54,294 nt of DNA from a virus (IMGVR_UViG_3300020438_000053:1-54294); one strand, 5' to 3'. Positions 24,779-38,488 are shown, counted from the first letter of the stretch. The notes: a model not told the origin generated them from the sequence alone. Numbers and translations are program-made.

Positions 24779-25048
24779 TCATTTCTTTTTACTGCGCCTT
24801 TTGGGCGAAGCGCTTTTGCGTTTGCGCGCGAATGATCTGTTTTTGGCCTTAGACACTACCCGAAGATTCTTTTTACGGTTGTCGGCAGTGTTTCGGTTTT
24901 TATGGTCTACGTCTTTACCGTCGCCTTTTCTCGCCTTACCTGCCTTAACCATCTTAGCCCTTGCGCTATTGCGCTGAGCCCTCCTCTTTTTTTGCTTAGG
25001 CCTCTTGTGGTATAAGTACTCTTTCTTGTAGTTTCTAGCTTTAGCCAT
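24779..25048 (-). CDS. small basic HNH endonuclease
   Basis: RNYKKEY...GDGKDVDH.......N...NLRVVS...NR. Confidence 0.85.
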   Translation of the reverse strand: MAKARNYKKEYLYHKRPKQKKRRAQRNSARAKMVKAGKARKGDGKDVDHKNRNTADNRKKNLRVVSKAKNRSFARKRKSASPKRRSKKK

Positions 25049-25092
25049 GGTCTTAGGGTACCCACGGGGGGTTTCCGTTGCAATCCGTTGTG
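25049..25092 (-). promoter_or_regulatory. putative late promoter (CACAACGGATTG + TACCCT), leaderless
   Basis: Box 44 nt before ATG 25048 on the minus strand. Confidence 0.65.
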
Positions 25093-25239
25093 GATCGGCT
25101 AGGTACTATCATGCCTGCAGAGGTGCTAAAAAGTGCTTGGTGCTTTTAAAATCCCACACATTTCCTTATTTCAATAATTGAAATTAGTCATGGTTTATTT
25201 AAAATTTTTAAAAAATTTTATAAAACCGTGTGGGAACAT

Positions 25240-25330
25240 TTGGTGCTTAATGCTTGGTGCTTAGTGCTTAGTGCTTAGTGCTTAGTGCTTGGTGCTTGGT
25301 GCTTGGTGCTTGGTGCCTGGTGCTTAGTGC
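25240..25330. repeat. 7-bp tandem repeat (TRGTGCT) about 13 times
   Basis: tggtgct/tagtgct units read directly. Confidence 0.9.
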
Positions 25331-25345
25331 GAACCGAACTAATCT

Positions 25346-25660
25346 CTTCACGAACGTAGCAATACGTTCACACTGCAATACAAAACACAAAACAAGAAAC
25401 CGAACGTAGCAACACGTTCACACTGCAACCAAAACACAAAACAACGAACCGAACGTCGCAACACGTTCACACTGCAACTAAACACTGCAAAAAACCAAAA
25501 ACGGAAAGGAGATGCTATGGACCCATAGCTAAACTTGCCCATATCCAGACGTCGAAAGATGTCTGCACTGCAACCCAACCAACCATGAACTACGGACCTG
25601 AGTAAGTCCTAACAACTGCTCATTCTTCACGAACGTCGCAACACGTTCCTACTGCAATCT
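25346..25660 (+). repeat. array of GNRA-tetraloop hairpins each followed by ACTGCAA
   Basis: GAACGTmGCAAyACGTTC at 25352, 25402, 25451, 25631; variant AGACGTC-GAAA-GATGTCT near 25546. Confidence 0.8.
25594..25622 (+). ncRNA. compact H-type pseudoknot motif, copy 1
   Basis: GGAC/GTCC stem plus TGAGTA/TGCTCA stem. Confidence 0.6.
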
Positions 25661-25754
25661 AAACAAAAATACATACCGGTACTAAGCGTGTTAACAGCAA
25701 ATACTTACAAACCTAACATACGTAAATACGCACGCTGAAAAGCCACTATCACTA

Positions 25755-26003
25755 ATGAAACTACTAGCTACAGTTCTACACTCCGACTACATCTCCATTT
25801 ACGAATGGGACGGCAGTCTTCACAGAATTCAATACTTCGAAATCGAAGAACAAGGTACATTCAAACGTTCCTACATTCTAAAGTACTCCGACGGCACTAC
25901 ACAAAACGTCGCATCCAGCTACTTCAACAGCTTAGAAATCTGCCCAGAACGCCTTGTCCAAGCATGGAACGGCAACAAACCGCTAATTCCACACAACTCC
26001 TAA
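25755..26003 (+). CDS. hypothetical early protein
   Basis: 82 aa ORF with the local codon style. Confidence 0.6.
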   Translation: MKLLATVLHSDYISIYEWDGSLHRIQYFEIEEQGTFKRSYILKYSDGTTQNVASSYFNSLEICPERLVQAWNGNKPLIPHNS

Positions 26004-26004
26004 C

Positions 26005-26283
26005 ATGAAACCACACATCATAGATCCCTTCGGAAAACCAGATCACCTCATTCAACTTCTCAAAGAAGAAGGTGAAGTAACCAACCTAAGCGTCGACCAA
26101 GCCGGCTTCGACACTCTGCTCGAAAGACTACTCGCCATCGGAATAGACGGCGAACTCGCTAACAACAACGAATTCATCATGCACGTCTGCGAAAGTTTCG
26201 AAGCAGGAGGCGTACTATGCTCTCGCAACACCGACGACAAAACCATCGTCGCAATCTCAAAACCAGAGGCAACCTCTTTATGA
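26005..26283 (+). CDS. hypothetical early protein
   Basis: 92 aa, tightly packed. Confidence 0.6.
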   Translation: MKPHIIDPFGKPDHLIQLLKEEGEVTNLSVDQAGFDTLLERLLAIGIDGELANNNEFIMHVCESFEAGGVLCSRNTDDKTIVAISKPEATSL

Positions 26284-27107
26284 TCATGCAAAATAAAACA
26301 ACCGGAACATCACTAGAAACCATAACACCAGCTATAGCTACTCAGTACTTGAAGCTAAACAGGCACAATAGAAAGTTGTCCAACAGAACAGCAGAACGGC
26401 TTGAACAAGCCATGAAAGATCTCAACTGGAAAACCAACGGTGAGACTATAAAGTTCGGAACCGGACTTGAAGGTAAAGAAATACTACTGGACGGACAACA
26501 CAGATTAACAGCCTGCGTTACCGCAAATGTTCCATTCTCAACGTACGTCATCCGAGGGCTCGACCCCGATGTCTTCGACACTATAGACAGCGGTAAGAAA
26601 CGCAATCTAGCAGATGTCTATTCCACCATGGGATGCAAAAGCACCACCATGCTAGCCTGTTCTATTGTTCTCGTCGACAGATATACTATCGGCAAATTAG
26701 CTCATCACAACAGTTCAGACTACCCAAACGAAGTAGCTCAAACACTCATCGATCTTTACCCCGAAATCATAACAAGTGTAAACCTAATAGAACGACTCAA
26801 GAAAACGCTCCCGCTAGCCCCAGGAGCCGTTGCTGCCGCTCACTACATCTTTGCACAAATAGACGTAGAAGAAGCAGACGCCTTCGCAGTCAAACTATCT
26901 AAAGGTATCGGACTCACAGAACACTGCCCGATACGGCACTTCCGCGAACAAATGATCAAAGACAGAGCTCGCAAAAATCCTTGGACACGGTTCGAACTGC
27001 TCGGAACTATCATCAAAGTATGGAACCACGTACGCTTTGCACGGTCAATGACCAGATCAGCCACGCGATGGACGCCAGATACGGCACCACAACCTGTCGC
27101 CAAATAA
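26280..27107 (+). CDS. ParB/Srx-like (DGQHR) protein
   Basis: ITP..A..YL..N..NR, W..NGE.I, LLDGQHRL, D.GK.R; ATGA overlap at 26280. Confidence 0.75.
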   Translation: MIMQNKTTGTSLETITPAIATQYLKLNRHNRKLSNRTAERLEQAMKDLNWKTNGETIKFGTGLEGKEILLDGQHRLTACVTANVPFSTYVIRGLDPDVFDTIDSGKKRNLADVYSTMGCKSTTMLACSIVLVDRYTIGKLAHHNSSDYPNEVAQTLIDLYPEIITSVNLIERLKKTLPLAPGAVAAAHYIFAQIDVEEADAFAVKLSKGIGLTEHCPIRHFREQMIKDRARKNPWTRFELLGTIIKVWNHVRFARSMTRSATRWTPDTAPQPVAK

Positions 27108-27114
27108 GCAGCAC

Positions 27115-27143
27115 AGACCTGAGCATGTCTTAACAACTGCTCA
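27115..27143 (+). ncRNA. compact pseudoknot motif, copy 2
   Basis: AGAC/GTCT plus TGAGCA/TGCTCA. Confidence 0.6.
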
Positions 27144-27150
27144 TCCCTTT

Positions 27151-27345
27151 ATGACCGAAACAAAAAAAGAAACAGAAAAGCCTAATACGCTTATACAATC
27201 GAAATACGAATACGACAGCTTCAAAGAATGGCTGGCAGAGTCCCCCTCAGACTTAGATCCTGATGTCTTACTATTCTGGCAAAATGAACTAACTAAATGG
27301 GAAAAGCTCCTGCCCCCCAGTTTACATGACCTGAGTAAGTCTTAA
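27151..27345 (+). CDS. hypothetical protein
   Basis: 64 aa ORF between two pseudoknot motifs. Confidence 0.5.
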   Translation: MTETKKETEKPNTLIQSKYEYDSFKEWLAESPSDLDPDVLLFWQNELTKWEKLLPPSLHDLSKS

Positions 27346-27355
27346 CAACTGCTCA
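27328..27355 (+). ncRNA. compact pseudoknot motif, copy 3
   Basis: GAC/GTC plus TGAGTA/TGCTCA. Confidence 0.55.
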
Positions 27356-27362
27356 ATCTTTC

Positions 27363-27468
27363 TACTCGTTCGCTAGTGACACATGTGGGCGCGATTGAAC
27401 CACGGCGAGACAGAGCAACGCTAGGATTAGCTACCCTAAACTTACACTCCCTAGACTTCGAACGAGTA
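27363..27468 (+). ncRNA. candidate Y-RNA-like structured RNA upstream of the Ro60-like gene
   Basis: 5' TACTCGTTCG pairs perfectly with 3' CGAACGAGTA; CTAG/CTAG pairs after a bulge; internal hairpins GTGG/CCAC and TAGG/CCTA. Confidence 0.5.
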
Positions 27469-27513
27469 CGATTTATTCACCTAATCCCTTTATAACAATC
27501 CACACACCATACT

Positions 27514-29040
27514 ATGAGTAATCTATTACAAAACGTAGAGAGAGCTACGAACTCAACTCTCACAGAAAACGGTGCCTTGACGCACAAAAGCACACTCAAT
27601 GAGTGCTTAAACTTATTCTCCCGCGCAGGCGGGTTACGCAACAACCCAGTAGAAGCCTTAAACCTCTTCAAGAATGCATACGCAGAAGACCCAATCGCTG
27701 CAGTCATAACCCTATTCTACATTCGTGACATCCGAGGCGGGATGGGCGAACGACTCATATTCCGAGTATGTATGGACTGGTTGCTCGACAGGCAACCAAG
27801 CATGTACCGCAACATCGTCAATTGCACTCCTGAATTCGGGCGGTGGGACGACGTAGTGCGTCACTATCACGTCAACAAGGAACTAATTAAGAACCAGATC
27901 CGAGAAGACGTCGACAACACGGACGCACTACTCCCTTGCTCACTGCTCGCCAAGTGGATGCCCAGCATCTCAGCTAGCAACGATGCTCAGAAGCTTCTCG
28001 CCAAAGAAATCGCTTCCGACATGGGAATGACCCAAAGGTTATACCGAAAGCTGCTCGCCAAACTACGAAGTCACATCGACATCGTCGAAAGGCACATGTG
28101 CTCTAAGAACTGGTATGACATCGACTTCAGCAAGGTACCAAGCCAAGCCATGCTGAAACTCAAATCAGCCTTCTGGAAGAACCAACCAGAACGTTTCAAA
28201 GCCTACATAAACTCCGTCGAGAAGGGCGAAGAGAAGATCAATGCGGGCACTATCACCCCCGACCAGCTGGTCAAAGCCTACAACAGGGAACCGCACAATC
28301 ACATATACGGAGATCCCATCGTACTCGATCCAGTAATCGAAGAGCAATGGAAAGCCCTACCAACATGGGGCGAACCACAAGACATGCTCGTCGTAGCTGA
28401 TGTAAGCGGAAGCATGTACTGGTCAGAAACTCGACCTATCGACATCGCTATCTCACTCGCTCTGTACGCTAGCGAACGTAATGCCAACCCCCTCTGGCAG
28501 AACACGTTCATGACGTTCGACTCGAAGCCACAGCTGATGAAGGTGAATCCTCACAACACTCTACTAGAGAAAGTGCAAGAGCTCCAGAATGCCCCATGGG
28601 GCGGTAAAACTAACCTCCAAAGAGCCATCGATCTAATCATCGACAGCTGTGAGGTTGAGGCAGATCTACCCGATTCGCTGGTAATCATCAGCGACATGGA
28701 GTTCGACTACGCTACGGCTGGAACCACGAACTTCGACGCTTTCAAACAAAAAGCCGAAGCAAAAGGATTCAAGCTTCCTAACATAGTCTTCTGGAACGTA
28801 GACTCTAGGAATCGCCAATCGCCCGTCACCTTCGACGAGCGAGGCGTAGCCCTCGTGTCAGGTCGCTCACCATCGATTCTGCAAATGGCATTCGACGGCA
28901 ACTTCGATCCGATGTCCTTCTACCAAGAAGCGGTACTCAACAACCGCAGGTACAAAGATGTCAAACGCGGAGCACAGTTCGGTAACTCCTGCTGGGCAGA
29001 CACGCCCGTAGCAGACCAAGCTCAAGTCGATGATGCTTGA
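27514..29040 (+). CDS. Ro60/TROVE-like vWA protein (DUF2828 family)
   Basis: TENGA, RDIRGGMGER, GRWDD, AKWMPS, VPS.AM, MIDAS DVSGSM, ISDMEFD, FWNV. Confidence 0.88.
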   Translation: MSNLLQNVERATNSTLTENGALTHKSTLNECLNLFSRAGGLRNNPVEALNLFKNAYAEDPIAAVITLFYIRDIRGGMGERLIFRVCMDWLLDRQPSMYRNIVNCTPEFGRWDDVVRHYHVNKELIKNQIREDVDNTDALLPCSLLAKWMPSISASNDAQKLLAKEIASDMGMTQRLYRKLLAKLRSHIDIVERHMCSKNWYDIDFSKVPSQAMLKLKSAFWKNQPERFKAYINSVEKGEEKINAGTITPDQLVKAYNREPHNHIYGDPIVLDPVIEEQWKALPTWGEPQDMLVVADVSGSMYWSETRPIDIAISLALYASERNANPLWQNTFMTFDSKPQLMKVNPHNTLLEKVQELQNAPWGGKTNLQRAIDLIIDSCEVEADLPDSLVIISDMEFDYATAGTTNFDAFKQKAEAKGFKLPNIVFWNVDSRNRQSPVTFDERGVALVSGRSPSILQMAFDGNFDPMSFYQEAVLNNRRYKDVKRGAQFGNSCWADTPVADQAQVDDA

Positions 29041-29122
29041 TCTAATAATCCTCGGAGCAGTGATGATGCTGACTCCGATCTCCTTCGTAATGATCATGGA
29101 CTACTTGACCATGCGAAGATAA
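29030..29122 (+). CDS. 30-aa single-TM peptide
   Basis: MMLDLIILGAVMMLTPISFVMIMDYLTMRR. Confidence 0.45.
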   Translation: MMLDLIILGAVMMLTPISFVMIMDYLTMRR

Positions 29123-29143
29123 AAACTATCACCACACACCAAC

Positions 29144-29223
29144 GGACGCCGAAAGTCGTCCTTACAGCCTGTTCTAGTGAATCACATGTCTACCAACGAC
29201 ATGCACTGGAGCAGGCTTTTTTT
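29144..29223 (+). ncRNA. structured RNA and/or long terminator downstream of the Ro60-like gene
   Basis: GGACG/CGTCC hairpin; 14-bp stem AGCCTGTTCTAGTG/CACTGGAGCAGGCT with G-U pairs; bulge; CATGTC/GACATG; T-tract. Confidence 0.6.
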
Positions 29224-29256
29224 CTTACACGGGTTCTTACATATAACCACACACCA

Positions 29257-29589
29257 ATGAACATGAAACCTCAAATGTCTAAGCAAAAACACATATCTAC
29301 TGAAATAGAATCTCACGCACTAGATGTACTAACTTACGAAGTAAACCTACAATATCTTCAACATGAACTACAACAACTTGAAAATATATATCCCACCAGC
29401 TTCGAAACAGAACACTACTACGACTTCCTAACTGACATATTCAACAACCTAAAAGGTGAATATAAAAGAATATTCTACGAAGTAACTAACTCAGAGGAAT
29501 TTAAACTAAAACAACAATTATTCCTACGCAAACACCGCAACTCAAAAACAAACAGAGAAGCCATCGAAAAAATTCTAAAAATAATCTAA
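29257..29589 (+). CDS. hypothetical protein
   Basis: 110 aa; preceded by AACCACACACCA. Confidence 0.6.
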   Translation: MNMKPQMSKQKHISTEIESHALDVLTYEVNLQYLQHELQQLENIYPTSFETEHYYDFLTDIFNNLKGEYKRIFYEVTNSEEFKLKQQLFLRKHRNSKTNREAIEKILKII

Positions 29590-29591
29590 CC

Positions 29592-29684
29592 ATGAACGAA
29601 CACACAGCCGACTGGGGCTTCATCCTTCTAGTAATCCTAGGCGTAATGATCCTAAGCTACTGCCTAACTGAAGTTCACCTATAA
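29592..29684 (+). CDS. 30-aa single-TM peptide
   Basis: MNEHTADWGFILLVILGVMILSYCLTEVHL; fills the intergenic gap. Confidence 0.5.
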   Translation: MNEHTADWGFILLVILGVMILSYCLTEVHL

Positions 29685-29696
29685 CCACACACCATA

Positions 29697-30263
29697 ATGA
29701 AACCAATAAACCAAAACAACATAACGCGTGCCAACCGCACACCAAATGAATTACTACACTTCCTTCTATGGACAACAACCGTAGCAGGAAAACGATCCGA
29801 CGTTCAGACAGAGAAGTTCAACGAGCTATTCAAGGAAGCCGACCTCAGTCTCATCGCCAAACACGGCAACAGCCTACGAGCTAAGATGAAAACAGTCGGC
29901 CTGGGTCAATACAGTCGACTAGTACAATGCTGGAAGCACATCAACCGACACATACGACCAACCAAATTGAGAACTATCACTAGAGACGAGCTAACGAAAA
30001 TACCTGGAATCGGCCCCAAGACCGCCAGCTTCTTCATAGCTCACTCACAACCGTGGCCAGAAATTGCCGTACTCGATGTACACATTCTCAAATGGCTACA
30101 AAAAGAATTCCCTAAACAAAAAATCCCTAAAGTAACTCCAAGCGACCCCGATCAGTATCGGGACATCGAAGCCCTCTTCTTGGGCAGGAGCTGTCAACTA
30201 AACACAAAACCGTCAGATCTCGACACCTTGATCTGGCAAAAAGCCACTAACCATGTGTCGTGA
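29697..30263 (+). CDS. HhH-GPD DNA glycosylase/AP-lyase-like protein (Ogg2-like)
   Basis: HhH LTKIPGIGPKTASFF with Lys; AVLDVHIL with catalytic Asp; Y..IE; LD..IW. Confidence 0.8.
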   Translation: MKPINQNNITRANRTPNELLHFLLWTTTVAGKRSDVQTEKFNELFKEADLSLIAKHGNSLRAKMKTVGLGQYSRLVQCWKHINRHIRPTKLRTITRDELTKIPGIGPKTASFFIAHSQPWPEIAVLDVHILKWLQKEFPKQKIPKVTPSDPDQYRDIEALFLGRSCQLNTKPSDLDTLIWQKATNHVS

Positions 30264-30323
30264 AGATCCATACAGCGTTCATTACGACCCTAACTACAAC
30301 AACCAAATAGACAAAGACACAAC

Positions 30324-30626
30324 ATGCTACACCGCACAAAACTACATCAGATTATACAACGCCTTGGACACGCTATCTTCCACATTACGTGGATTAAAAA
30401 AGACGGAACCGAAAGAAAAGCAAACGTCCGATGCAAAGTCATCAAAGGAATCAACGGAAAAGGTAAACGTATCAACCGAGCCAACAACGCAAACATAAGT
30501 ATATACCTAATGGGAAACGAAACAGGGTATCGCACGCTAAACTTAAACACGGTACGCTCGCTCAAATGCTACGGCTACAATGCCACTATCACACCAGATC
30601 CTATTACAAATGAAAAAAAAGTATAG
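30324..30626 (+). CDS. WYL-like SH3-fold protein (DUF2693-like)
   Basis: F.ITWIKKDGTER...GYRTLNL.TV. Confidence 0.6.
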   Translation: MLHRTKLHQIIQRLGHAIFHITWIKKDGTERKANVRCKVIKGINGKGKRINRANNANISIYLMGNETGYRTLNLNTVRSLKCYGYNATITPDPITNEKKV

Positions 30627-30819
30627 GTTCTTTTATCACTACAACAAAAATAATAGATGCTTAACAGTACACCACAGAGGTAAATGTTTACTAACTGACG
30701 CAATAAACATATCAGTACCTACCGAATCCAAAACAAACCCAAAGCAACAGCCTCACATCGTCATGCAAGGCTGGTGCACCAACCTAACTCACACAACTAA
30801 TATAACAACAATATCATGA
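30610..30819 (+). CDS. conserved phage hypothetical protein
   Basis: RFFYHYNK...TVH....C...QPH.VMQG. Confidence 0.6.
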   Translation: MKKKYRFFYHYNKNNRCLTVHHRGKCLLTDAINISVPTESKTNPKQQPHIVMQGWCTNLTHTTNITTIS

Positions 30820-31637
30820 ACGATCATCGATTATATATGCATTGCGGAGCAACACCCGTAAACAAGACCGAGGTATACAAAACAAAAACACCGACGAATA
30901 CGAATACACACTATCCGATACCGCACGGTACGTTTCTCGACAATGTATTCAACACACTAAACGAAGTAGGGCTAGTTACCACTAACGAACACTACGGGCT
31001 AAACCACGAAGGCAACGATTTATTCGCCCTTCTCGAAATAGAACGGAGCGACAACGGTGACAACGACAATGGTACATTCACCAACGCAGTCGGAATACGT
31101 AACAGTCACATCAAACACTTCTCCGCTAGCCTAGTAGCAGGCGGTCGAGTCTTCGTATGCGACAACCTAATGATCAGCGGTGAAATCAAAATGAATCGAA
31201 AACACACTCGAAACATCCTAAAAGATCTACCAAATCTCATCGGTCACATGGTACTACAGCTCGTCGACAAATGGCTATTCCAAGAAGTACGTTACGATGC
31301 ATATCGCGACACAGAACTCACCCAAAGCCAAGCCGACGAACTACTAGCACTATCATTCCGTAAAGGATGCATACCAGGCTCGAAGTTACAAAAAGTAGTC
31401 AACCAATGGGAAACACCAACTCATGATGAGTTTCAACCACGAAACGCTTGGAGCATGTTCAACGCGTTCACGGAAGTTCACAAAGAATCTCCGTCACAAC
31501 TACCAACTCGTAGTATGCGATTACACAACACGTTCAATGGGTACTGCAAAAACGCCCTTGACGATCTTATGAACCAACGAGGTATCGCAATAGATGCTGA
31601 CATATCACAAATCGAGGACGCTGAAATAATAGTGTGA
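30816..31637 (+). CDS. DUF932/DUF945-family protein
   Basis: YPIPH, RNSH....S, G.RVFVCDNL, H, W..FNAFTE. Confidence 0.75.
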   Translation: MNDHRLYMHCGATPVNKTEVYKTKTPTNTNTHYPIPHGTFLDNVFNTLNEVGLVTTNEHYGLNHEGNDLFALLEIERSDNGDNDNGTFTNAVGIRNSHIKHFSASLVAGGRVFVCDNLMISGEIKMNRKHTRNILKDLPNLIGHMVLQLVDKWLFQEVRYDAYRDTELTQSQADELLALSFRKGCIPGSKLQKVVNQWETPTHDEFQPRNAWSMFNAFTEVHKESPSQLPTRSMRLHNTFNGYCKNALDDLMNQRGIAIDADISQIEDAEIIV

Positions 31638-31846
31638 CCCTTTGGAGAGCTCTCAAAATACTCAACGCTCTGTACCAACACAGCGATGAGGACATTCGAG
31701 AAGCTATCCAAATACACCAGAGACACGTTCGCAAAATTCTTTGCCCACAATGCAAAGAACAACTTATTAGCATCGGTCTAGCCAACACAGCAGGCCAATG
31801 CTTACAATGTCACATAAGCAACGAAACTCCAACTACATATGACTAA
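31634..31846 (+). CDS. small zinc-finger protein
   Basis: CPQC...CLQC; GTGA coupling. Confidence 0.5.
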   Translation: MTLWRALKILNALYQHSDEDIREAIQIHQRHVRKILCPQCKEQLISIGLANTAGQCLQCHISNETPTTYD

Positions 31847-31848
31847 TC

Positions 31849-32655
31849 ATGTCAAAGAATAACTCGACTCAACTAAGATGGAACCAAGGTAATGTTAAGT
31901 TACCAGATCGAATACTTCATTTCAGCCTACCATCAGGCCACAGCTGTCCAGCAGCACTGAAGTGTTTAGCCAAGTCCGATTACCACACAGGTAAAATCAC
32001 CGACGGCAGACAACAAACCTATAGATGTTACGCAGCCATGCAAGAAGCTAGGCACTCACGCATACGTCATCAAAGATGGGATAACTTCAAAATACTCAGA
32101 CGCTTGGGGCGAAAGAAAATACTATCATTATTGAAAGCTACTCTTTGCCCCCTGCACGACGAATACTTTGCCAATCACCAACAATATCCAATCGTACGCG
32201 CTCATGTAGGCGGTGACTTCTTCAAAGAAGATTACTTTCTAGCCTGGATGGATCTAGCCAACTACTTCGATCTAACGCAGTTCTACGCTTACACTAAAAG
32301 AACCGACCTATGGATAATGCATATGGACAACATACCTCTGAACTTCGAACTCAATGCCTCACGCGGAGGTAAGTTCGACGATCTCATAGACACACATAAA
32401 CTAAAATCTGCAGAAGTCGTATTCTCCACGGAAGAAGCTAAAACTAAAGGACTAGAACTAGATCATGACGACAGCCTCGCATACACACCCGGACCCTCGT
32501 TCGGACAACTCATCCACGGATGCCAACCCGCAGGATCAGACGCCTCTAAAGCTCTTATCCAACTCAAAACAGACATCGGCTGGACAGGTTACTCGAAAAA
32601 TACCAAGGGAAGCCCAAAAGAAAATAACAACGTTCTTCTCTCAACTAAAAACTAG
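31849..32655 (+). CDS. gp88-like protein (Cys-cluster, radical-SAM-like)
   Basis: GN.KL, FSLPSGHSCP.A..C, CYA, R.HVGGDF, FYAYTK. Confidence 0.75.
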   Translation: MSKNNSTQLRWNQGNVKLPDRILHFSLPSGHSCPAALKCLAKSDYHTGKITDGRQQTYRCYAAMQEARHSRIRHQRWDNFKILRRLGRKKILSLLKATLCPLHDEYFANHQQYPIVRAHVGGDFFKEDYFLAWMDLANYFDLTQFYAYTKRTDLWIMHMDNIPLNFELNASRGGKFDDLIDTHKLKSAEVVFSTEEAKTKGLELDHDDSLAYTPGPSFGQLIHGCQPAGSDASKALIQLKTDIGWTGYSKNTKGSPKENNNVLLSTKN

Positions 32656-33253
32656 AGAAGTAAATCGTTACATCCAAGATTGGGAACGGATTCGTCCTAA
32701 AACCAATCAAGAAACCATCAATCGATGGCGATTCGCCTACTGCACCATCCACACACCGTGGGAACGCAGTTGCGATCAATACGATCAAGTAAAAGGTATA
32801 TACGGCAAAGCCAACCTAAACAGCCTCGAACGATTACTATCACGCTCAACAGGCGGAATGTGGTCGATCAAAGCTAACGGGATGTACCACTTCCAACTCG
32901 AATGGGCAACGAACAAACAATTGTTCAAACCTACCAACGATTGGCAGACTTGGCGTAACAAACTAGTCGAGACACTACCCGGCATCGGGCAAGCCAAAGT
33001 TAGTTTCGCCATCGAAATGATTCATCCGACGGAAGCTCAATGCATATGTCTCGATCGACACATGCTCAAAGCCTTCGGCTGGACACAACTAGACAGCCAA
33101 CCAGAACTAGATCAATATATGATCTATGAAGACTACTGGTTAAAGCTATCCGCTGAACGGGGCGTCCCGCCTGTAATCAGCAGAAATATATTCTGGGACA
33201 GAATACAAAAACAAAACAGCTCACTCTACTGGGCTAACTCGATAATAGACTAA
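32465..33253 (+). CDS. second HhH-GPD DNA glycosylase-like protein (true start uncertain, probably near 32600)
   Basis: LPGIGQAKVSFA, CLDRHML, Y..YE, .WD. Confidence 0.7.
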   Translation: MTTASHTHPDPRSDNSSTDANPQDQTPLKLLSNSKQTSAGQVTRKIPREAQKKITTFFSQLKTREVNRYIQDWERIRPKTNQETINRWRFAYCTIHTPWERSCDQYDQVKGIYGKANLNSLERLLSRSTGGMWSIKANGMYHFQLEWATNKQLFKPTNDWQTWRNKLVETLPGIGQAKVSFAIEMIHPTEAQCICLDRHMLKAFGWTQLDSQPELDQYMIYEDYWLKLSAERGVPPVISRNIFWDRIQKQNSSLYWANSIID

Positions 33254-34212
33254 TGCACAAAACAATAAACCACACACCACAACAACCTCCGTATTCTATT
33301 ACGGATAATTCAATAACCATCCTCTGGAACGGTGAATCACACACCGTGTCCAGTTCCGCACCTAACTATAAGGATCTCAAAGACTGCATCATCAACGGTG
33401 CATGGGATGTCATAGACGAAGCACTGACCCCATCGAAATCATTCGAAAAGATCAGTGACGGTCAGATCACTATAGAAAATAACGCCGTCCACTATCAAGG
33501 CAAACCCATCCACAACGCAGCTACCCAAAAGCTCATGGATCTACTAGCACAAGGCTTATCAGATCCAAAACCTTGGATGAAATTCATCGAGAAACTCATG
33601 GCTAATCCCAGCTACAACAGCAGGGAACAAGGCTACAAGTTCCTCGAACACCGCAACATGCCCATCACAGCGGACGGCAACGTAATCGGATACAAAGGAG
33701 TCAACAGCGAATACAAAGACATCTACTCAGGTAAATTCGACAACTCAGTCGGACAACGCTTATCAATGAATAGATCCGGCGTTGACGACAATGTAGATCA
33801 CGGATGCTCAGCCGGCTTTCACATCGGAAGCCACGAGTACGCCGACTCTTGGGGATCCAACGGCAAACTCATGGTCGTTGAATTCTCACCCGAAGACATC
33901 GTCTCAGTACCAACCTGTTCAAGCTACGCCAAATTACGAGTATGCAAATACGAAGTAATCGGCGAATGCCACAACAGAGAGAAGCTGAACGACGGTCTCT
34001 ACGGACACGAAGGCGACATCAGATACGAAGACATATTCAAGTATCTCGAGAAACGCTGGAACAAAGGCAAATCCCCACGCTTCCGCAAGCTAAGCAAGAA
34101 GTTCCCAGGCATCAGCATAGAGGAACTCAACTCAGCTACCGAAGGCTACGGAGCTCTCACCACACTTGAGTGGGACGACTCCAAGAACGATTACCTAGTA
34201 ACTTTGCATTAG
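33253..34212 (+). CDS. rIIB: rIIB-like protein
   Basis: L.ANPS, FLEH..MPIT.DG..IGYKGV, DNSVG...M.R..VDDN....CSAGFH, DIVSVP, K.RVCKY.V. Confidence 0.85.
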   Translation: MHKTINHTPQQPPYSITDNSITILWNGESHTVSSSAPNYKDLKDCIINGAWDVIDEALTPSKSFEKISDGQITIENNAVHYQGKPIHNAATQKLMDLLAQGLSDPKPWMKFIEKLMANPSYNSREQGYKFLEHRNMPITADGNVIGYKGVNSEYKDIYSGKFDNSVGQRLSMNRSGVDDNVDHGCSAGFHIGSHEYADSWGSNGKLMVVEFSPEDIVSVPTCSSYAKLRVCKYEVIGECHNREKLNDGLYGHEGDIRYEDIFKYLEKRWNKGKSPRFRKLSKKFPGISIEELNSATEGYGALTTLEWDDSKNDYLVTLH

Positions 34213-34230
34213 CGGTTACTAATGGTTATG

Positions 34231-34259
34231 GCGACCTGAGCACGTCGTAAAACTGCTCA
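34231..34259 (+). ncRNA. compact pseudoknot motif, copy 4
   Basis: GCGAC/GTCGT plus TGAGCA/TGCTCA. Confidence 0.6.
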
Positions 34260-34294
34260 CCTATTTAACCACACACCACTAATCGCACACTATC

Positions 34295-34999
34295 ATGAAC
34301 GATATTGATCCACAGTACATTCATCAATCGGGACGTCACAAAGGACAACTAAATCAATCTCTCCTTCAAACAAAAGGTAAATTCAGACGCGGTCAACTCC
34401 ACCCTCTATGCGCTGGCATCGTATTCCGAAGCTATAAATCAGCAATAAGGAAAAACAGACCATCAAACAGAAAAAATCTGCAATCATGGACAACTCAAGA
34501 GCAACATGAAAAAGAAAACGCGCGTCATCGCAAGTATCAAAGTAATTGGAGAAAAGAAAACCCAGAGAAAGAAAAAGCAAATAAACTCAACATGACGACC
34601 GAACAACGCGCAAGACGCTGTATTTACTTCAGAGCATACAATACAAAACGACGCGCCGAGGATCCCGAATTCAGACTGCTTAATAACTTACGAAACAGTC
34701 TTTACAAAGCGGTCACTGCCCAAAGCAGTCACCAATACAAACTAAAAACAATAAAACTAATCGGTTGCACTCCCAAACAACTCCAAATCCACATCGAATC
34801 TTTATGGACAGACGAAATGAGCTGGGAAAGCTATGGACTTCGCGGATGGCATGTCGATCACATCAAACCCTGCGCATCCTTTGATCTAAAAGACCCAAAT
34901 CAACAAAAGAAATGCTTCCATTACACTAACCTACAACCTCTTTGGGCTGAAGACAACCAGTCCAAAGGAGCAAAACTCAACTGGCAGAAAGCTGCCTAA
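34295..34999 (+). CDS. free-standing HNH homing endonuclease
   Basis: IGC....L..HIE....MSW..YG..WHVDHIKPCASFDL.....CFHYTNLQPLWA..N..K. Confidence 0.85.
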   Translation: MNDIDPQYIHQSGRHKGQLNQSLLQTKGKFRRGQLHPLCAGIVFRSYKSAIRKNRPSNRKNLQSWTTQEQHEKENARHRKYQSNWRKENPEKEKANKLNMTTEQRARRCIYFRAYNTKRRAEDPEFRLLNNLRNSLYKAVTAQSSHQYKLKTIKLIGCTPKQLQIHIESLWTDEMSWESYGLRGWHVDHIKPCASFDLKDPNQQKKCFHYTNLQPLWAEDNQSKGAKLNWQKAA

Positions 35000-35044
35000 C
35001 CACTAACCACACACCACTAACCACACACCACTAATCGAACTATC

Positions 35045-35275
35045 ATGAAAATAGAATGCACAGACGGATTCACGTTCAGCATGGTCACAGGCTCAGGCAC
35101 ATATGCCATGCCAGGATGCGCTGAACTCGGATATCCATCAGAACCAGACGAACTATTGGAACCTCATCGAGAACAACTCAATGAAGATCCAACGGAATGC
35201 GTCTATCCATACACACCACTAACCGTAGTAGCACAACTACTCAAAAAGCATAACCACACACCAGATAACCAATGA
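35045..35275 (+). CDS. conserved phage hypothetical protein
   Basis: C.DGF.FS...YA.P...ELGYPS...VYPYTP. Confidence 0.65.
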   Translation: MKIECTDGFTFSMVTGSGTYAMPGCAELGYPSEPDELLEPHREQLNEDPTECVYPYTPLTVVAQLLKKHNHTPDNQ

Positions 35276-37521
35276 AACTAGCAACAAGTAACGCAACGCC
35301 GGCAGTGCATAATCTGTCATCACCATCTCACTTCTCGATCAAGAAGGAGAACATGTCACACATCATAGGAATACTCCGATCCAAGATCTATTCCAACAAA
35401 TGGCTGGCTGTCCTCAGAGAATACCTAACCAACGCAGTTGACGCACACGTCGAAGCAGGCCTACTAGCCTATCAAGTAGAACTAACGCTCCCGACACTAT
35501 CATCGCCTACGTTAATCATCCGTGACTTCGGTAAAGGATTAAGCGAAGAAGATGTCCGAGAGATGTACATCATGTACGGCTCATCAACCAAGCGACAATC
35601 CAATGACTACACTGGATGCTTGGGCATCGGATGCAAAGCCGCGTTCGCCTACACTGATACGTTCACCGTAACGTCATATCAGAATGGCAATCGCAGTACC
35701 TACAATGCAGTCATCACCGACGGCGGTGAAGGTAGCATCTACTGCATCGATTCATCCGACACCAATGACATGGACGGAATAGAAATCAAAGTACCAGTAC
35801 GAACGGAAGACATCGAGAACTTCAAAAGGGAAGCATTCGGAATCCTTCCATACTTCGACACGCCACCACGTCTTATCAACGAAGACATGGAGTATCCAAC
35901 GCTGGATATCATTGATGCCGGAACAAACTGGAGATTGAAAAAAGATACCAGCGGAAGCCACGGTTATCATCGTAACCACGGCAAAGCTACCGCCGTCATG
36001 GGTAACATCCCATACAAACTAGAAGTAGATAAGATGGGTAACACTGAACATTCCGACATAATCGAATGCAGTAACATCATCATCAACTTCCCCTTGGGTA
36101 GCTTGGACATCGCTGCCAACCGTGAATCGTTGGAGTACACACCACGTACAATCAGCAACATCAACATCGAAGCAGAGCGAGTAATCAAAGACTTAGCTAC
36201 CAAGCTACAAGTCAAGATATCAAACTGCAAAAACCTATGGGATGCATCACTCAAAGCTCATGAAGTAACCAAGAACTTACCGTATGGAATAGCCAACAAA
36301 GTATTCGATGCCATGCGATTCAATAACGAACGCCTGAAAAGAAAGTTCCGCTTTCCTTGTAGCGTCACAAGACATTACAGGAAGCACAGGTACAGAGCCA
36401 ACGACTACGCCAATGCGAAAGAAGACACTAGTCTCATAGGCGTCGATGAACACAGCACCGTATGCATATACGACGTCCGCGAACTATCATCGGTTCAAGC
36501 GACGATGCGGGTAAGAACACTGCAAGCCAACAGTAACTGGGACAAAGAGAAAGTATTCTATGCAATAGCATACGACTCCAAAGCTAAGTTACCCAAAGGC
36601 ACACGCATACTTACCACCGACGTGTTACCTGCAAAGTTCCTAAAGAAACTACCAAAGCCTGCGGTAAACGCTGACGGACAATCATTACCATGGGAGTCCG
36701 ATGCTCACTTACTCAAAGACAACTACATCAACCTGAATGAGGTAGAAACGTACAAGCCTGCACGTAAGAAAAAGAATGACGATGGATCTACGACACCCGT
36801 CAAGATCGATACATGCTTCTTAAAGCCAAATCATCTCGCATCAGGTAGAATCGTCCAATCGGAATACCTAGCACCATGCAATGGCATGCACATCTACATA
36901 CCGTTGGATCGCTACTCGTGGCACGACAAGAAGTACAGCTTAGAGCATGATGACTTCAAACTCATACGAACAGCACTACAAATGATGCATCGCTTGGAAG
37001 GACTACCCAAACCAACCATCCACGGAGTAAAGAAACACTTCTTAGATAAGTTAGACGACACATGGGTAGAGTTAGACGACTGGTACAACAAGCTGTACAA
37101 GAAAATAAAGAACACGCATCGCAAAAAGATCGCGCTCGCTGCAAATGAAGTATTAGGACACGGCACCCCATACACATACTCAGAACATAAAATATTCGAG
37201 AAACTACCAAAGAGTTTACGATTCCCCGAATGGGAAACATTCAAACTCATAAGGGAACAGCACGAATACAACCCGGGCAACGTCAACTATGTTACAGTAC
37301 GCGACACGTCCGACATAGATACAGACGACGAAGTCAGTCACCTTCTTCATCATGTATGGAGAATGTTTAACCCTGACTTCCAATCACCAAACACAATACA
37401 TGAAGCCTACGAAACATTCCTCAAAGCACATCCAATGATGAGGTATTTCAACACAAACTGGCAACGCAACGACAAGGAGGAAGTAAACGATGTCAAAGAA
37501 TATCTTACACGAGGAGCCTAA
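35272..37521 (+). CDS. rIIA: rIIA-like protein (GHKL ATPase N-terminus)
   Basis: IYSNK..AVLRE..TNAVDAH, IRDFGKGLS, STK..SND..G.LGIGCK..FAY, F..G.LDI..NRE.L. Confidence 0.88.
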   Translation: MKLATSNATPAVHNLSSPSHFSIKKENMSHIIGILRSKIYSNKWLAVLREYLTNAVDAHVEAGLLAYQVELTLPTLSSPTLIIRDFGKGLSEEDVREMYIMYGSSTKRQSNDYTGCLGIGCKAAFAYTDTFTVTSYQNGNRSTYNAVITDGGEGSIYCIDSSDTNDMDGIEIKVPVRTEDIENFKREAFGILPYFDTPPRLINEDMEYPTLDIIDAGTNWRLKKDTSGSHGYHRNHGKATAVMGNIPYKLEVDKMGNTEHSDIIECSNIIINFPLGSLDIAANRESLEYTPRTISNINIEAERVIKDLATKLQVKISNCKNLWDASLKAHEVTKNLPYGIANKVFDAMRFNNERLKRKFRFPCSVTRHYRKHRYRANDYANAKEDTSLIGVDEHSTVCIYDVRELSSVQATMRVRTLQANSNWDKEKVFYAIAYDSKAKLPKGTRILTTDVLPAKFLKKLPKPAVNADGQSLPWESDAHLLKDNYINLNEVETYKPARKKKNDDGSTTPVKIDTCFLKPNHLASGRIVQSEYLAPCNGMHIYIPLDRYSWHDKKYSLEHDDFKLIRTALQMMHRLEGLPKPTIHGVKKHFLDKLDDTWVELDDWYNKLYKKIKNTHRKKIALAANEVLGHGTPYTYSEHKIFEKLPKSLRFPEWETFKLIREQHEYNPGNVNYVTVRDTSDIDTDDEVSHLLHHVWRMFNPDFQSPNTIHEAYETFLKAHPMMRYFNTNWQRNDKEEVNDVKEYLTRGA

Positions 37522-37882
37522 GGTAACATGGATCAGCAGTCGCAAGCTCAAACGGAACTTACAAAGTTTCGATCAAAGCTTACAACTAGCCCCAGGAAAC
37601 ACACTCAAACGTAACTTCGAAGACGGCTTATGGATATACAAAGACTGGACTTACGTAAGCTTCCGCTTCGTTCACAACCATAATCAAGCAAACGTGCATC
37701 CCAACGGTTATCACTCCAGCGCTTGGGGATGGTGGGGCGAACTCAGTGCCGTCGCAGACAAAGACAACATCATCCACATACACACCAAGACAGGATCATG
37801 GCCAAGCATCGAGCACTTCCACTGGACAGTGAGCAAAATCGATGAGCTACTTCCCACAGCCCGTCGTTTGTACGGTCTATAA
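37490..37882 (+). CDS. hypothetical protein
   Basis: 130 aa; AAGGAGG upstream. Confidence 0.6.
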   Translation: MSKNILHEEPKVTWISSRKLKRNLQSFDQSLQLAPGNTLKRNFEDGLWIYKDWTYVSFRFVHNHNQANVHPNGYHSSAWGWWGELSAVADKDNIIHIHTKTGSWPSIEHFHWTVSKIDELLPTARRLYGL

Positions 37883-37889
37883 TATCGAA

Positions 37890-37917
37890 CCACCTGAGCA
37901 CGTGGCTAAACTGCTCA
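37890..37917 (+). ncRNA. compact pseudoknot motif, copy 5, followed by a T-tract
   Basis: CCAC/GTGG (compensatory) plus TGAGCA/TGCTCA. Confidence 0.6.
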
Positions 37918-38114
37918 CCTTTTTTTAATCAGGGTCTATCGGCTAGCACACTATCATGCCTCGGTGCGGTCTTCGACCTCATGGTGCTTTGGTGCTTAAT
38001 ACAAATACATTTTAAATACAATTTCCATATTTCATATGTTAATATAATCAAGTACTTAGTGCTTGGTTCCTTTAAACGCCGACGGTGCAGGCTAAAGCAC
38101 CAACCTTCCAAACT

Positions 38115-38465
38115 ATGAAATTGAAAGCCTTAACTGCAAAGCAGATCACAGCTCGCAACCTCAAAGTTCAAAACATGGCGGTCTCCTCAGACTCAACCGC
38201 TGGTCTGGAATTCCTCAACCAGCTTACCGATGTTGCAAACATTGGGGGATGTCGTGCGGTTCTCAACAACCTCACACAATCCAACCGCCCAATGTTCGTG
38301 CTATACGGCGACGACGGTATTCCGTTCGCCAAGCACATCCCTTACCACGGCAAGCCAGCCGACGAGCTAGAGCAGGCATTCGGCAAGCTCGACGACCTCG
38401 TAATCGGTACGGTTTACGACGCGGTTGTCACAGGCGGGAGACTCCGTTCTCTCGTTGCTACCTGA
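38115..38465 (+). CDS. hypothetical protein
   Basis: ATG 38115; followed by a terminator. Confidence 0.65.
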   Translation: MKLKALTAKQITARNLKVQNMAVSSDSTAGLEFLNQLTDVANIGGCRAVLNNLTQSNRPMFVLYGDDGIPFAKHIPYHGKPADELEQAFGKLDDLVIGTVYDAVVTGGRLRSLVAT

Positions 38466-38488
38466 TCACTATCATCCACGGCTTCTCA

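Follow-up and report, generated by a model that had tools for sequence, protein, structure and literature searches.

The stretch of viral DNA analysed here (54,294 nt, hereafter the window) carries five copies of a short element for which the original prediction had proposed an H-type pseudoknot fold. Scanning the whole window with the pattern CCTGAGYA-N5-16-ACTGCTCA returned five matches and no others, every one on the + strand (25597-25622, 27118-27143, 27330-27355, 34235-34259 and 37893-37917); shuffling the window yielded no match in any of 100 shuffles, i.e. none is expected by chance. A covariance model built from 144 family members recovered the same five copies with 36.2-43.8 bits, the next best score in the window being 12.7 bits, which confirms the predicted set.

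Copy 1 (25594-25622; 36.2 bits) lies within the untranslated early leader, with the best sigma-70-like site (25178-25205) about 390 nt upstream and no + strand ORF ending nearby. Its stem 1 pairs 25594-25597 with 25606-25609 (GGAC/GTCC) and its stem 2 pairs 25599-25604 with 25617-25622 (TGAGTA/TGCTCA), leaving C25598 as loop 1 (L1), A25605 as the junction nucleotide (L2) and 25610-25616 (TAACAAC) as loop 3 (L3). Copy 2 (27115-27143; 40.0 bits) follows the TAA (27105-27107) of ORF 26217-27107 after 7 nt and comprises stem 1 at 27115-27118/27127-27130 (AGAC/GTCT), L1 C27119, stem 2 at 27120-27125/27138-27143 (TGAGCA/TGCTCA) and L3 at 27131-27137. Stem 1 of copy 3 (27328-27355; 36.3 bits) has only 3 bp (27328-27330/27339-27341, GAC/GTC), with L1 C27331 and stem 2 at 27332-27337/27350-27355 (TGAGTA/TGCTCA). 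The TAA of a small ORF (27151-27345) falls in L3 of this copy, and a 158-nt non-coding stretch follows before the gene for a Ro60-like protein (ORF 27514-29040; domains DUF2828/DUF7788/VWA). Copy 4 (34231-34259; 43.8 bits) starts 18 nt after the TAG of an rIIB-like ORF (33253-34212), with stem 1 at 34231-34235/34244-34248 (GCGAC/GTCGT, one G.U), L1 C34236, stem 2 at 34237-34242/34254-34259 and L3 at 34249-34253 (AAAAC); a related contig (L091) has a copy at 3539-3573. Finally, copy 5 (37890-37917; 43.8 bits) begins 7 nt past the TAA that ends ORF 37490-37882; it is built from stem 1 at 37890-37893/37902-37905 (CCAC/GTGG), L1 C37894, stem 2 at 37895-37900/37912-37917 and L3 at 37906-37911 (CTAAAC). 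Two nucleotides (CC) further 3', on the same strand, is a run of seven T (37920-37926), an apparently terminator-like arrangement in which the pseudoknot would replace the simple hairpin. Being a pseudoknot, the structure is of a kind that the hairpin-based terminator scan does not call; copies 1-4 are without a run of four T downstream. The earlier description of four copies (2-5) at or just after stop codons, and of a T-tract after the last one, thus holds.

The five elements are members of a large RNA family for which Rfam has no matching model. Its common element is, as read from the alignment, an H-type pseudoknot of about 25-28 nt; hundreds of copies from other phages show covariation in each of its two stems. 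Stem 1 comprises 3-6 bp of free sequence closed by a conserved C-G pair; loop 1 is a single C, the junction is 1 nt long, and stem 2 has 6 bp, with U-R-R-N-Y-A pairing with U-R-N-Y-Y-R. Loop 3 is A-rich and ends in AAAC or CAAC. The stem 1 covariation claimed for the window reads as predicted, apart from the shortened helix of copy 3, and across the family the stem 1 sequence varies freely with pairing kept (3-6 pair types per pair). Among the IMG/VR matches listed, 111 unique canonical instances with validated stem 1 (5 of them from the window) compare with 136 matches, and stem 1 is present in about four fifths of the canonical ones; by our own estimate its chance rate is about 3.5%. Among the listed copies with a validated stem 1, a mutated stem 2 position 12 was met by a complementary partner in 67 of 67 cases and a mutated position 11 in 96 of 96, whereas in listed matches without stem 1 the stem 2 partners are scattered. 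The statement that stem 2 varies only by C-G versus U.G is therefore true of the window, where it is always TGAGYA/TGCTCA, but not of the family, in which positions 10-13 change with full compensation and G10-C35 becomes A-U in several copies. Strong conservation is found around the junction (the closing C-G, the loop 1 C, U9, Y13-A14, AAAC and U31-G32), the junction nucleotide L2 itself being variable (T 64, A 42, C 9 and G 1 in the 116 copies listed). Downstream of stem 2 the copies listed share only Y-Y-W-W, with G depleted; stem 2 is followed by A in about 88% of them, by CC in 30/116 and by CCA in 14/116, the last in none of the five window and none of the seven cultured-phage copies. No further conserved helices were found in the flanks of the family alignment. 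Nested folding energies are modest (-5 to -9 kcal/mol); a truly stable fold would depend on tertiary contacts.

Other phages carry the motif too: searching IMG/VR, as had been suggested, we found it in at least 119-120 loci in each of three pattern scans. Cultured carriers are Roseophage SIO1, Arthrobacter phage Amigo, Bacillus phage Page, Lactobacillus phages KC5a and phig1e, Staphylococcus phage StB12 and the crAss-like cr7_1; their host groups include Alphaproteobacteria, Actinobacteria and Bacillota, in addition to the crAss-like phage. The pseudoknot occurs in phages of hosts from at least four bacterial phyla, and MAG contigs of Saccharibacteria, Bacteroidota and others that also carry it suggest more. 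Copies are dispersed and single, unlike a type III antitoxin RNA (ToxI-like) with its tandem repeats beside an endoribonuclease toxin gene; the sole match to a ToxI model was phig1e (15.9 bits, E 1.2). Cultured phages often have one copy, at the boundary between gene modules, and in these single-copy phages the neighbouring genes are quite different; several Bacillota phages carry theirs upstream of the scaffold and major-capsid genes.

The position of the copies follows clear rules. Only 2 of the 116 copies listed lie inside a same-strand ORF, and at least 97 of the copies listed share their strand with the upstream neighbour, against 9 that have it on the opposite strand. Spacers between stop codon and stem 1 of less than about 5 nt are rare, a sharp limit that roughly coincides with the edge of a terminating ribosome, and the lengths peak at 5-7 nt, with 5, 6 and 7 nt all common (5-7 nt in 32/80 and 0-4 nt in 1/80 copies listed; 44/112 and 6/112 in an independent set). 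The next start codon is a median of 113 nt downstream among the copies listed. At 12 of 13 loci with a DUF932 gene, the pseudoknot lies 5-18 nt 3' of the stop of this gene, and the gene that follows differs between loci and is 20-1157 nt away: the pseudoknot is anchored to the stop codon of the upstream gene, not to the downstream gene. Ten of the copies listed are 4-12 nt upstream of a tRNA gene and none is directly downstream of one; with phage Amigo, where the gap is 2 nt, this makes 11 cases of a tRNA gene 2-12 nt 3' of the pseudoknot. Four or more T within 10 nt downstream occur in 30/145 family copies listed (3.8% of controls) and in 48/175 copies of the independent set, an overall frequency of 21-27%, so that roughly 75-80% of copies have no U-run; the run starts 0-2 nt past stem 2 in 14 of the 31 T-run cases listed. 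Promoter-like sites upstream are not enriched (18/145 copies listed versus 18.8% of control windows). In a few loci (L116, L117) a good promoter-like site ends 8 nt before the pseudoknot, placing it at the probable 5' end of the transcript.

Among the neighbours in the window, the original prediction had named the Ro60-like and a WYL-like protein as candidate binders. Neither is supported: in a tblastn search with all window ORFs, no Ro60-like homologue was found in the 119 motif-bearing loci listed, and none of the 25 + strand window ORFs scanned gave a WYL family match at E <= 0.01. Beyond lineage effects, no protein family comes up repeatedly at the motif loci listed, and the genes neighbouring the motif share no common pathway. 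As for the proposed Y-like RNA, the 158 nt after copy 3 do form a long terminal stem, yet their folding is unexceptional (z = -1.0) and no Rfam family matches at E <= 10. Nor does any Rfam family match the pseudoknot at the gathering threshold, and no antiterminator, riboswitch or ribozyme model matched in the window scans or the cultured-phage copies.

The nearest Rfam family is GP20-b (RF03003), a candidate cis-regulatory motif upstream of phage scaffold genes and, like our motif, phage intergenic; it was reached by a single copy, below threshold. The KC5a region aligns to the whole model, with stem 2 of the pseudoknot on the model's first hairpin, but scores 20.5 bits against a gathering score of 36.2. 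Only in KC5a and phig1e does the pseudoknot share the position of GP20-b, upstream of a scaffold gene of PF06810 (formerly GP20). At the E-value limits used, GP20-b gave no match in the SIO1, Amigo, Page, StB12, cr7_1 and phig1e copies, and the window region 25300-27600, with copies 1-3, was free of it at E <= 10; for copies 4 and 5, coverage comes from the whole-window scan at the gathering threshold. Eight GP20-b matches (six above the cut-off) look, on inspection by eye, like two small hairpins, each match continuing with UAAAA(A) and a short stretch complementary to its loop or flank. GP20-b is a 62-nt two-hairpin motif with other conserved letters and one gene family, whereas the window's family has one pseudoknot of 25-28 nt and spans many gene contexts and host phyla. 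We therefore reject membership in GP20-b, given the score under 36.2 and the lack of a PF06810 gene among the 25 window ORFs scanned, including those downstream of the five copies.

Other small pseudoknots resemble the element in shape. The preQ1-I aptamer is a very small H-type pseudoknot in which a hairpin is followed by an A-rich tail that runs along stem 1 and pairs with the loop through its end. Our family differs in its 6-bp stem 2 (3-4 bp in preQ1-I), its 1-nt loop 1, the lack of a conserved ligand-pairing C and its absence from 5' leaders of queuosine genes; with no Rfam match, diverse neighbouring genes and an anchor at the upstream stop, it does not qualify as a preQ1-I riboswitch. 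Luteovirus (BWYV-type) frameshift and retroviral read-through pseudoknots are of similar size (about 28 nt) and share further features with our element: a C in loop 1, a loop 3 rich in A, a junction of 1 nt and a distance of 5-8 nt to the A-site codon. In contrast to these, an ordinary stop lies upstream of our element, no slippery site is conserved, and what follows is a tRNA gene or a gene that has its own start codon. The motif itself closes two of three frames (TGA in stem 2 and TAA in loop 3, read from A1), and these closed frames, the common occurrence of 5-, 6- and 7-nt spacers and the ten tRNA genes within 12 nt argue against a recoding signal. Finally, the 3' strand of stem 2 contains a boxA-like UGCUC, which we do not read as a single-stranded boxA because it is base-paired and covarying; since it changes with compensation, a nut/boxA site (GCUCUUUA-like, NusB/NusE) was rejected.

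That the pseudoknot works as RNA and not as a double-stranded DNA site, as originally argued, follows from the covariation of its stems, the U.G pairs on the sense strand, the avoidance of ORFs and the ribosome-sized distance to the stop. A promoter, an origin or nick site, or a recombination sequence might be imagined from the single copies at module boundaries, but pairing is kept rather than sequence, the U.G pairs, confined to the sense strand, would be A-C mismatches on the other, orientation strictly follows the genes, and the hexamers within the motif are 7-12 nt apart (by eye, A1 and the KC5a copy), unlike sigma-70 spacing; a DNA-level signal is thus extremely unlikely. At the RNA level, a very small self-cleaving ribozyme cutting polycistronic phage transcripts is very improbable: 25 nt is much less than in any known natural self-cleaving class, and neither flanking helices nor Rfam matches (pistol, hammerhead, twister) were found. 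It would share its setting (phage intergenic, co-oriented with genes, near tRNA genes, conserved core with variable stems) with hammerhead, twister and pistol ribozymes, and the pairing of hairpin loop and tail resembles the P1/pseudoknot part of pistol. Distinctly unlikely is a small aptamer, riboswitch-like or a specific protein site, whose folded state would depend on a ligand or protein that many bacteria share. The missing common pathway and recurrent protein family, the variable L2, the absence of a riboswitch match and the tie to the upstream stop, rather than to a downstream ribosome-binding site or terminator, speak against it, although conserved nucleotides clustered at a helical junction between variable stems are typical of binding pockets and the overall plan is like preQ1-I.

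Three further readings would make the pseudoknot a signal or obstacle for general machinery. The stacked stems may mimic a tRNA acceptor arm that RNase P or another tRNA-processing enzyme cuts in loop 1, separating cistrons and giving the downstream RNA a 5'-terminal hairpin. A nearly universal enzyme and the adjoining tRNA genes fit this, as do U9 before the G10-C35 pair, the A after stem 2 and the CC after some copies. The stacked helix of 10-11 bp, however, falls short of the 12 bp in tRNA, and G10-C35 is not invariant. According to PMC12710915, bacterial RNase P cuts small H-type pseudoknots in loop 1 with a preference for U before the cut, its pseudoknot substrates including the TYMV tRNA-like structure and a biotin aptamer with a GCCAC tail; the likeness to our family extends to a single-stranded loop 1, a U that comes just ahead of the acceptor-like stem's first pair and an A after that stem. 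Cleavage in that study depended on a 3' RCCA, and CCA is rare in our copies; we rate this reading as quite unlikely. Fairly improbable, too, is a block to machines moving 5' to 3' (sliding post-termination ribosomes, RNase J or Rho) that would insulate or protect downstream RNA such as tRNAs and scaffold and capsid messages. In its architecture, with loop 3 rich in A and lying over stem 1, the element is like frameshift-stimulating pseudoknots, which resist the ribosomal helicase; it abuts the terminating ribosome, precedes tRNA genes and highly expressed head genes and, in L116 and L117, probably lies at a transcript's 5' end. Against this, anchoring is to the upstream gene, and RNase J (TIGR00649) scored above cut-off in only two of five motif-bearing MAG genomes, which are possibly incomplete or mis-binned. 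A cis signal to RNA polymerase, either a factor-independent antiterminator of the put type (HK022) or a pause or attenuation signal, could carry transcription across untranslated stretches or set the level of read-through. The polymerase is universal, in line with the host range; the best promoter-like site precedes copy 1, which belongs to the early leader; copies mark points at which ribosomes come off the message and a long untranslated stretch starts, and some directly precede tRNA genes or, in Bacillota phages, the long head and tail operon; and the U-runs tie the pseudoknot to termination. Nevertheless, put RNAs are two stem-loops of about 70 nt without similarity to our element, no Rfam antiterminator resembles it, and an antiterminator would be expected near promoters, which are not enriched, and not near stops. 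We regard such a signal as unlikely.

Of the functions put forward originally, that of a processing or nuclease-blocking element agrees best with where the copies lie. Like intrinsic terminators and intercistronic 3' stabilisers (T7 RNase III sites, REP hairpins), the copies closely follow stops, are co-oriented with genes, occur several times in an early operon and are enriched for U-runs; they differ in being a pseudoknot with conserved junction letters instead of a free-sequence hairpin, in mostly lacking a U-run and in keeping the same fold across phages of different phyla. From fold, strand, position rules, U-run enrichment and distribution we infer, tentatively and at clearly less than even probability, that the pseudoknot is a compact structural cap which would define and protect the 3' end of the upstream transcript and could serve as the structured half of a terminator. 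It would act in the transcript outside the coding sequence, as near to the upstream stop as the terminating ribosome permits, and would stop 3'-to-5' exonucleases and possibly other processive enzymes, thereby defining and protecting the 3' end of the upstream message. This end may arise via termination or via cleavage further downstream, e.g. when RNase P cuts at an adjacent tRNA, so that the new 3' end carries the pseudoknot. With a U-run behind it, as for copy 5, the pseudoknot itself might be the structured half of an intrinsic terminator. The occurrence of one fold across phages of very different hosts would be explained by a passive barrier, since it needs no host-specific partner. Some observations sit less easily with a cap: a simple barrier does not obviously need so conserved a junction, the Bacillota copies before scaffold and major-capsid genes would equally fit protection or activation of the downstream message, the promoter-like sites of L116 and L117 place the pseudoknot at a 5' end, and nested folding energies are modest and most copies lack a U-run. 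The RNA runs at hand consist of assembled contigs at depth 1-10, in which transcript ends do not show.

The pseudoknot might be a phage counterpart of the viral exoribonuclease-resistant RNAs, a fold of about 25 nt that alone would stop processive RNA-degrading or translocating enzymes at cistron ends and would have spread because it needs no host-specific partner; we consider this possible but doubtful. If true, few natural RNAs whose conserved tertiary function is autonomous would be as small as this pseudoknot.

The pattern CCTGAGYA-N5-16-ACTGCTCA matches the window five times, always on the + strand (25594-25622, 27115-27143, 27328-27355, 34231-34259 and 37890-37917, copies 1-5), and has no match in 100 shuffles of the window. 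Under a covariance model built from 144 family members these copies score 36-44 bits and the rest of the window at most 12.7 bits, so that pattern and model both recover all five copies that had been described, with nothing comparable elsewhere in the window. The described covariation of stem 1 is also seen among them: its sequence differs from copy to copy with the pairing kept, and stem 2 reads TGAGYA/TGCTCA. All five copies lie in a + strand block that begins after a strong sigma-70-like site (25178-25205) and extends through rIIA- and rIIB-like genes. The contig itself (54 kb, labelled linear, completeness estimate 81% in the IMG/VR record) has no close relatives among the 50,697 phage records searched; the only relative seen by tblastn of the window ORFs among the motif loci listed is contig L091, one of the motif-bearing IMG/VR loci. 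The original observation is thus confirmed and much extended, and the interpretation attached to it is supported in part.

The canonical pattern occurs in at least 119 IMG/VR loci. The element is exactly 25 nt long in 82 of the 136 matches listed, though the pattern permitted 21-32 nt, and stem 1 is also present in about four fifths of the canonical matches listed, compared with a chance rate of about 3.5% (our own estimate, made without a tool computation). Among the matches listed this leaves 111 unique canonical instances validated by stem 1, five of them the window's own. In the collection of bacterial and archaeal genomes, 73 of the 118 matches listed lack stem 1 and most of the 118 are attributable to chance; 30 have a stem 1 of at least 3 bp, and the MAG contigs that hold them bear the labels Saccharibacteria, Alistipes, Flavobacteriaceae, Anaerolineae, Polynucleobacter, Atribacterota, Omnitrophica and others. 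When the phage collection was queried with two 35-nt sequences, copies between genes turned up in cultured phages, namely Roseophage SIO1 and its relatives Lentibacter ICBM1-3 and Celeribacter P12053L, the Arthrobacter Amigo group, B. megaterium Page and Pony, Lactobacillus KC5a, phi jlb1, Lj771 and phig1e, Staphylococcus StB12, and the crAss-like phages cr7_1 and cr124_1. The covariance model supports all seven cultured-phage loci fetched, the match in Page being partial. Whole-record searches gave a single copy for each of SIO1, Amigo, Page and StB12, and in cr7_1 two clear matches plus a weak third (16 bits) on the opposite strand; five copies in the window are therefore at the high end. 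The carriers thus comprise phages of Alphaproteobacteria, Actinobacteria and Bacillota, Bacteroidota-associated crAss-like phages and MAGs of candidate phyla.

The pseudoknot is real, with decisive covariation in both stems. In the 144-sequence alignment A1 each stem-1 pair is represented by 3-6 pair types (e.g. UA 69, AU 60 and CG 12 for columns 6-17). As the A1 sequences had been chosen for pairing, a separate test that presumes no stem 2 was run, consisting of two IMG/VR scans in which one position of the 5' strand was forced to be non-canonical and its partner left unconstrained. When position 12 was other than G, all 67 stem-1-validated copies among the matches listed had a complementary partner (A-T 57, T-A 6, C-G 4); with position 11 not A, it paired in 96 of 96 such copies (G-C 89, G.T 6, C-G 1). 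In listed matches lacking stem 1, which are mainly chance occurrences, the partner letters were scattered. The fetched loci contain additional copies with U-A at 13-32 and A-U at 10-35. The weakest pair is the terminal U9-A36, where about 12 copies carry C, U or G in place of A36 with no compensating change. The statement that stem 2 varies only by C-G to U-G does not hold for the family, in which UGAACA/UGUUCA and UGGGCA/UGCCCA variants are common; because they are, mimicry of boxA or of a tRNA D-stem (UGCUCA/UGAGCA) was dropped as an explanation. The junction is invariant (closing C-G, loop-1 C, U9, Y13-A14, U31-G32 and a loop 3 ending in AAAC or CAAC), with the reservation that several of these letters were fixed by the search patterns, so that their conservation is partly ascertainment. 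Nested folding recovers the stem-2 hairpin alone, at -5 to -9 kcal/mol.

Rfam 15 contains no family that reaches threshold on the window, and around copies 1-3 relaxing the limit to E <= 10 adds only a mir-499 match on the opposite strand, attributed to chance; the proposed covariance-model and database searches thus produced a family in IMG/VR and none at threshold in Rfam. Among seven cultured-phage copies the sole related Rfam match is that of KC5a to GP20-b (RF03003), a phage motif upstream of scaffold genes; at 20.5 bits this match falls short of the gathering score (36.2), and it has stem 2 lying on the first hairpin of the GP20-b model; StB12 and phig1e gave no GP20-b match. In KC5a and phig1e the element shares the GP20-b context, upstream of a PF06810 scaffold gene. 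Eight GP20-b matches (L488-L495, six above the family cut-off) were fetched from 5 of 151 Bacillota genomes, and by eye they look like a pair of small hairpins; after each comes UAAAA(A) and then a short segment with complementarity to the loop or flank. They resemble two tandem mini-pseudoknots, in which an upstream GGT would pair with ACC of the first loop and GGC of the second loop with GCC past UAAAAA; no pseudoknot marks were seen in the structure line of the GP20-b model. The element and GP20-b may be architectural cousins, and when examined for membership of GP20-b the element fell outside that family. A description of the motif was not found in the full-text literature, within the portions of the papers available to us; it may be listed in the supplements of PMC10690425, which reports 10,006 candidate phage RNAs, or of PMC5737381, where GP20 is absent from the main text as far as accessible and the GP20 motif descriptions are placed in the supplements.

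The position of the element is that of an RNA feature at the end of genes. Among the matches listed, just 2 of 116 copies fall within an ORF (70 codons or more) of their own strand, at least 97 have their upstream neighbour on that strand compared with 9 that have it on the opposite one, and the median distance is 20 nt to the upstream stop and 113 nt to the next start. For 80 of the 145 copies listed, an ORF of 80 or more open codons terminates nearby; measured from its stop codon to where stem 1 begins, the spacer shows an abrupt floor, with one copy at 0-4 nt, 32 at 5-7 nt and then a tail. In the independent set of 175 listed copies with variant stem 2, the 112 spacers include 6 of 0-4 nt and 44 of 5-7 nt. 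The helicase site of the ribosome lies about 11 nt from the first base of the P site; with a stop codon in the A site about five single-stranded bases would be left, in agreement with the observed floor, which represents an independent, genome-scale footprint of the terminating ribosome. At DUF932 genes the element follows the stop by 5-18 nt in 12 of 13 loci, with a downstream gene that differs and is 20-1157 nt away: the element goes with the upstream gene. Covarying pairs, avoidance of ORFs, orientation with the genes and a ribosome-sized stop spacer together bear out the original view of an RNA element, and the rival reading as a DNA signal is argued against by these positional and covariation data, as is a regulator of one gene family by position and context. 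A promoter was rejected, sigma-70-like sites showing no enrichment around the element (upstream 18/145, downstream 21/145, control windows 136/725); a strong site ending 8 nt before it was found at the motif loci L116 and L117 only. A recoding signal is argued against as well: TGA and TAA within the motif close two frames, the spacer may be 5, 6 or 7 nt with each length common, and some copies are followed by tRNA genes.

Downstream, four or more consecutive T occur within 10 nt at 30 of the 145 copies listed (3.8% of control positions) and at 48 of the 175 in the second set, and G makes up 9% of the bases just after the element compared with 22% overall. Canonical hairpin-plus-T terminators at +12 to +200 are not enriched (20/145 copies versus 80/580 controls), and a small RNA made of pseudoknot plus terminator was discarded at this control rate. 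A tRNA gene begins 4-12 nt downstream of 10 listed copies, and no listed copy lies directly 3' of a tRNA gene; in Amigo the pseudoknot stands between the SSB gene and, 2 nt further on, tRNA-Gly. Cleavage of a small H-type pseudoknot within loop 1 by bacterial RNase P is reported when a 3' RCCA is present, and the same paper calls the targeting of pseudoknots in vivo an open question (PMC12710915). An RNase P-type processing site is among the rivals, and a CCA tail was found to be too rare among the copies. Further rivals are a put-like element directed at RNA polymerase, a roadblock in the 5'-to-3' direction, an aptamer and a ribozyme. A link to RNase J was rejected, as TIGR00649 scores above cut-off in two of five motif-bearing genomes, which gives no clean association. 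Of the binders suggested originally, the Ro60-like protein (27514-29040; DUF2828, DUF7788, VWA; PHROG 850 'RNA-binding protein') has no homologue by tblastn in the 119 motif loci listed, and none of the 25 window ORFs scanned matches any WYL family. More generally, tblastn and clustering of 1349 ORFs from these loci returned no shared partner, only lineage-level families (DUF932, Hsp20, WhiB, GP88-like). The Y-like RNA placed after copy 3 has a long terminal stem; its folding energy is unremarkable and it has no Rfam match.

We tentatively propose that the element could serve as a compact structural cap at the end of the upstream cistron. As part of that end it would stay folded beside terminating ribosomes and block 3'-to-5' exonucleases, leaving the upstream message with a protected, structured end, produced by termination or by a cut further downstream, e.g. 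by RNase P at an adjacent tRNA. Where a U-run follows, as at copy 5, the pseudoknot may form the structured half of an intrinsic terminator. Being passive, such a device would function in any host, in keeping with the wide distribution. Two observations weaken the case for the cap: the conserved junction points to something beyond bulk stability, and the position of the single copy in Bacillota phages, ahead of scaffold and capsid genes, would also be consistent with a function for the downstream RNA. Four metatranscriptome runs cover 24000-39500 with assembled contigs at a depth of about 1-10, and at this shallow, assembled coverage the contig ends (e.g. 27106, 27148, 37894) and depth steps at copies 2-4 are not evidence of transcript ends or levels. 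RNA contigs, which may include DNA carry-over, bridge copy 2 (27037-27251) and copy 4 (33848-34319).

Several other features of the window were recorded. An RNA contig at 25278-25537 is about 200 times deeper than the remaining region (up to 1280 in RNA run X8; bin means 283 in run X6 and 648 in X8), contig depth being a rough measure; it lies just 3' of the sigma-70-like site at 25178-25205, ends about 57 nt before copy 1 and could represent an early leader or a small RNA of very high abundance. A second motif, consisting of a GAACGT-NGCAAY-ACGTTC hairpin with NYACTGCAA after it, has four copies (25352-25378, 25402-25428, 25451-25477, 25631-25657) and no match in 100 shuffles; three form a 49-nt tandem array within the abundant RNA, and a similar hairpin, AGACGTCGAAAGATGTCT then GCACTGCAA, lies at about 25547-25573. 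The 7-nt unit TTGGTGC is repeated 13 times in tandem (25240-25330) in the interval that separates the promoter-like site from the hairpin repeats. Repeats of ACGTAAAA / TTTTTACG crowd the intergenic region of the divergent gene blocks (24350-24620); they are iteron-like and may mark a replication origin or genome end. The stretch ATCGGCTAG-N2-3-ACTATCATGCC is common to 25093-25115 and about 37938-37960, and CACACTATCATG lies at 34283-34297, ahead of ORF 34295; the shared stretch has a TATCAT -10-like hexamer directly abutting ATG and no Shine-Dalgarno sequence, and may represent promoters for leaderless or short-leader messages. On the coding strand of the early block (26000-38000) the AT skew is +0.24 to +0.31 and the GC skew -0.12 to -0.21, giving an A- and C-rich, G-poor message with the pseudoknots among its few structured spots. 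Just after the terminase- and portal-sized genes, an ORF of at least 1948 aa (48449-54292) continues past the window end, with no sequence matches in Pfam, PHROG or PDB. Motif locus L103 carries an unrelated 40-nt TCTCCTGCTTCTGGGAGAGGGGTCGGGGGTGAGGCGTCTTT-like repeat three times (109-150, 452-493, 3063-3104).

Taken together, this is a new, widespread and structurally well-supported phage RNA pseudoknot, for which the mechanism is a proposal. With its covarying stems and conserved junction, the 25-nt RNA would rank among the most widespread uncatalogued phage RNA elements, and it is open to experiment now in the cultured carriers SIO1, Amigo, Page, StB12, KC5a and phig1e. It bears on how phages punctuate and stabilise polycistronic messages without host-specific signals, on whether RNase P targets pseudoknots in vivo and on whether a pseudoknot can stand in for the hairpin of an intrinsic terminator; if it is a tiny, host-independent insulator or stabiliser, it might also become a part for synthetic biology.
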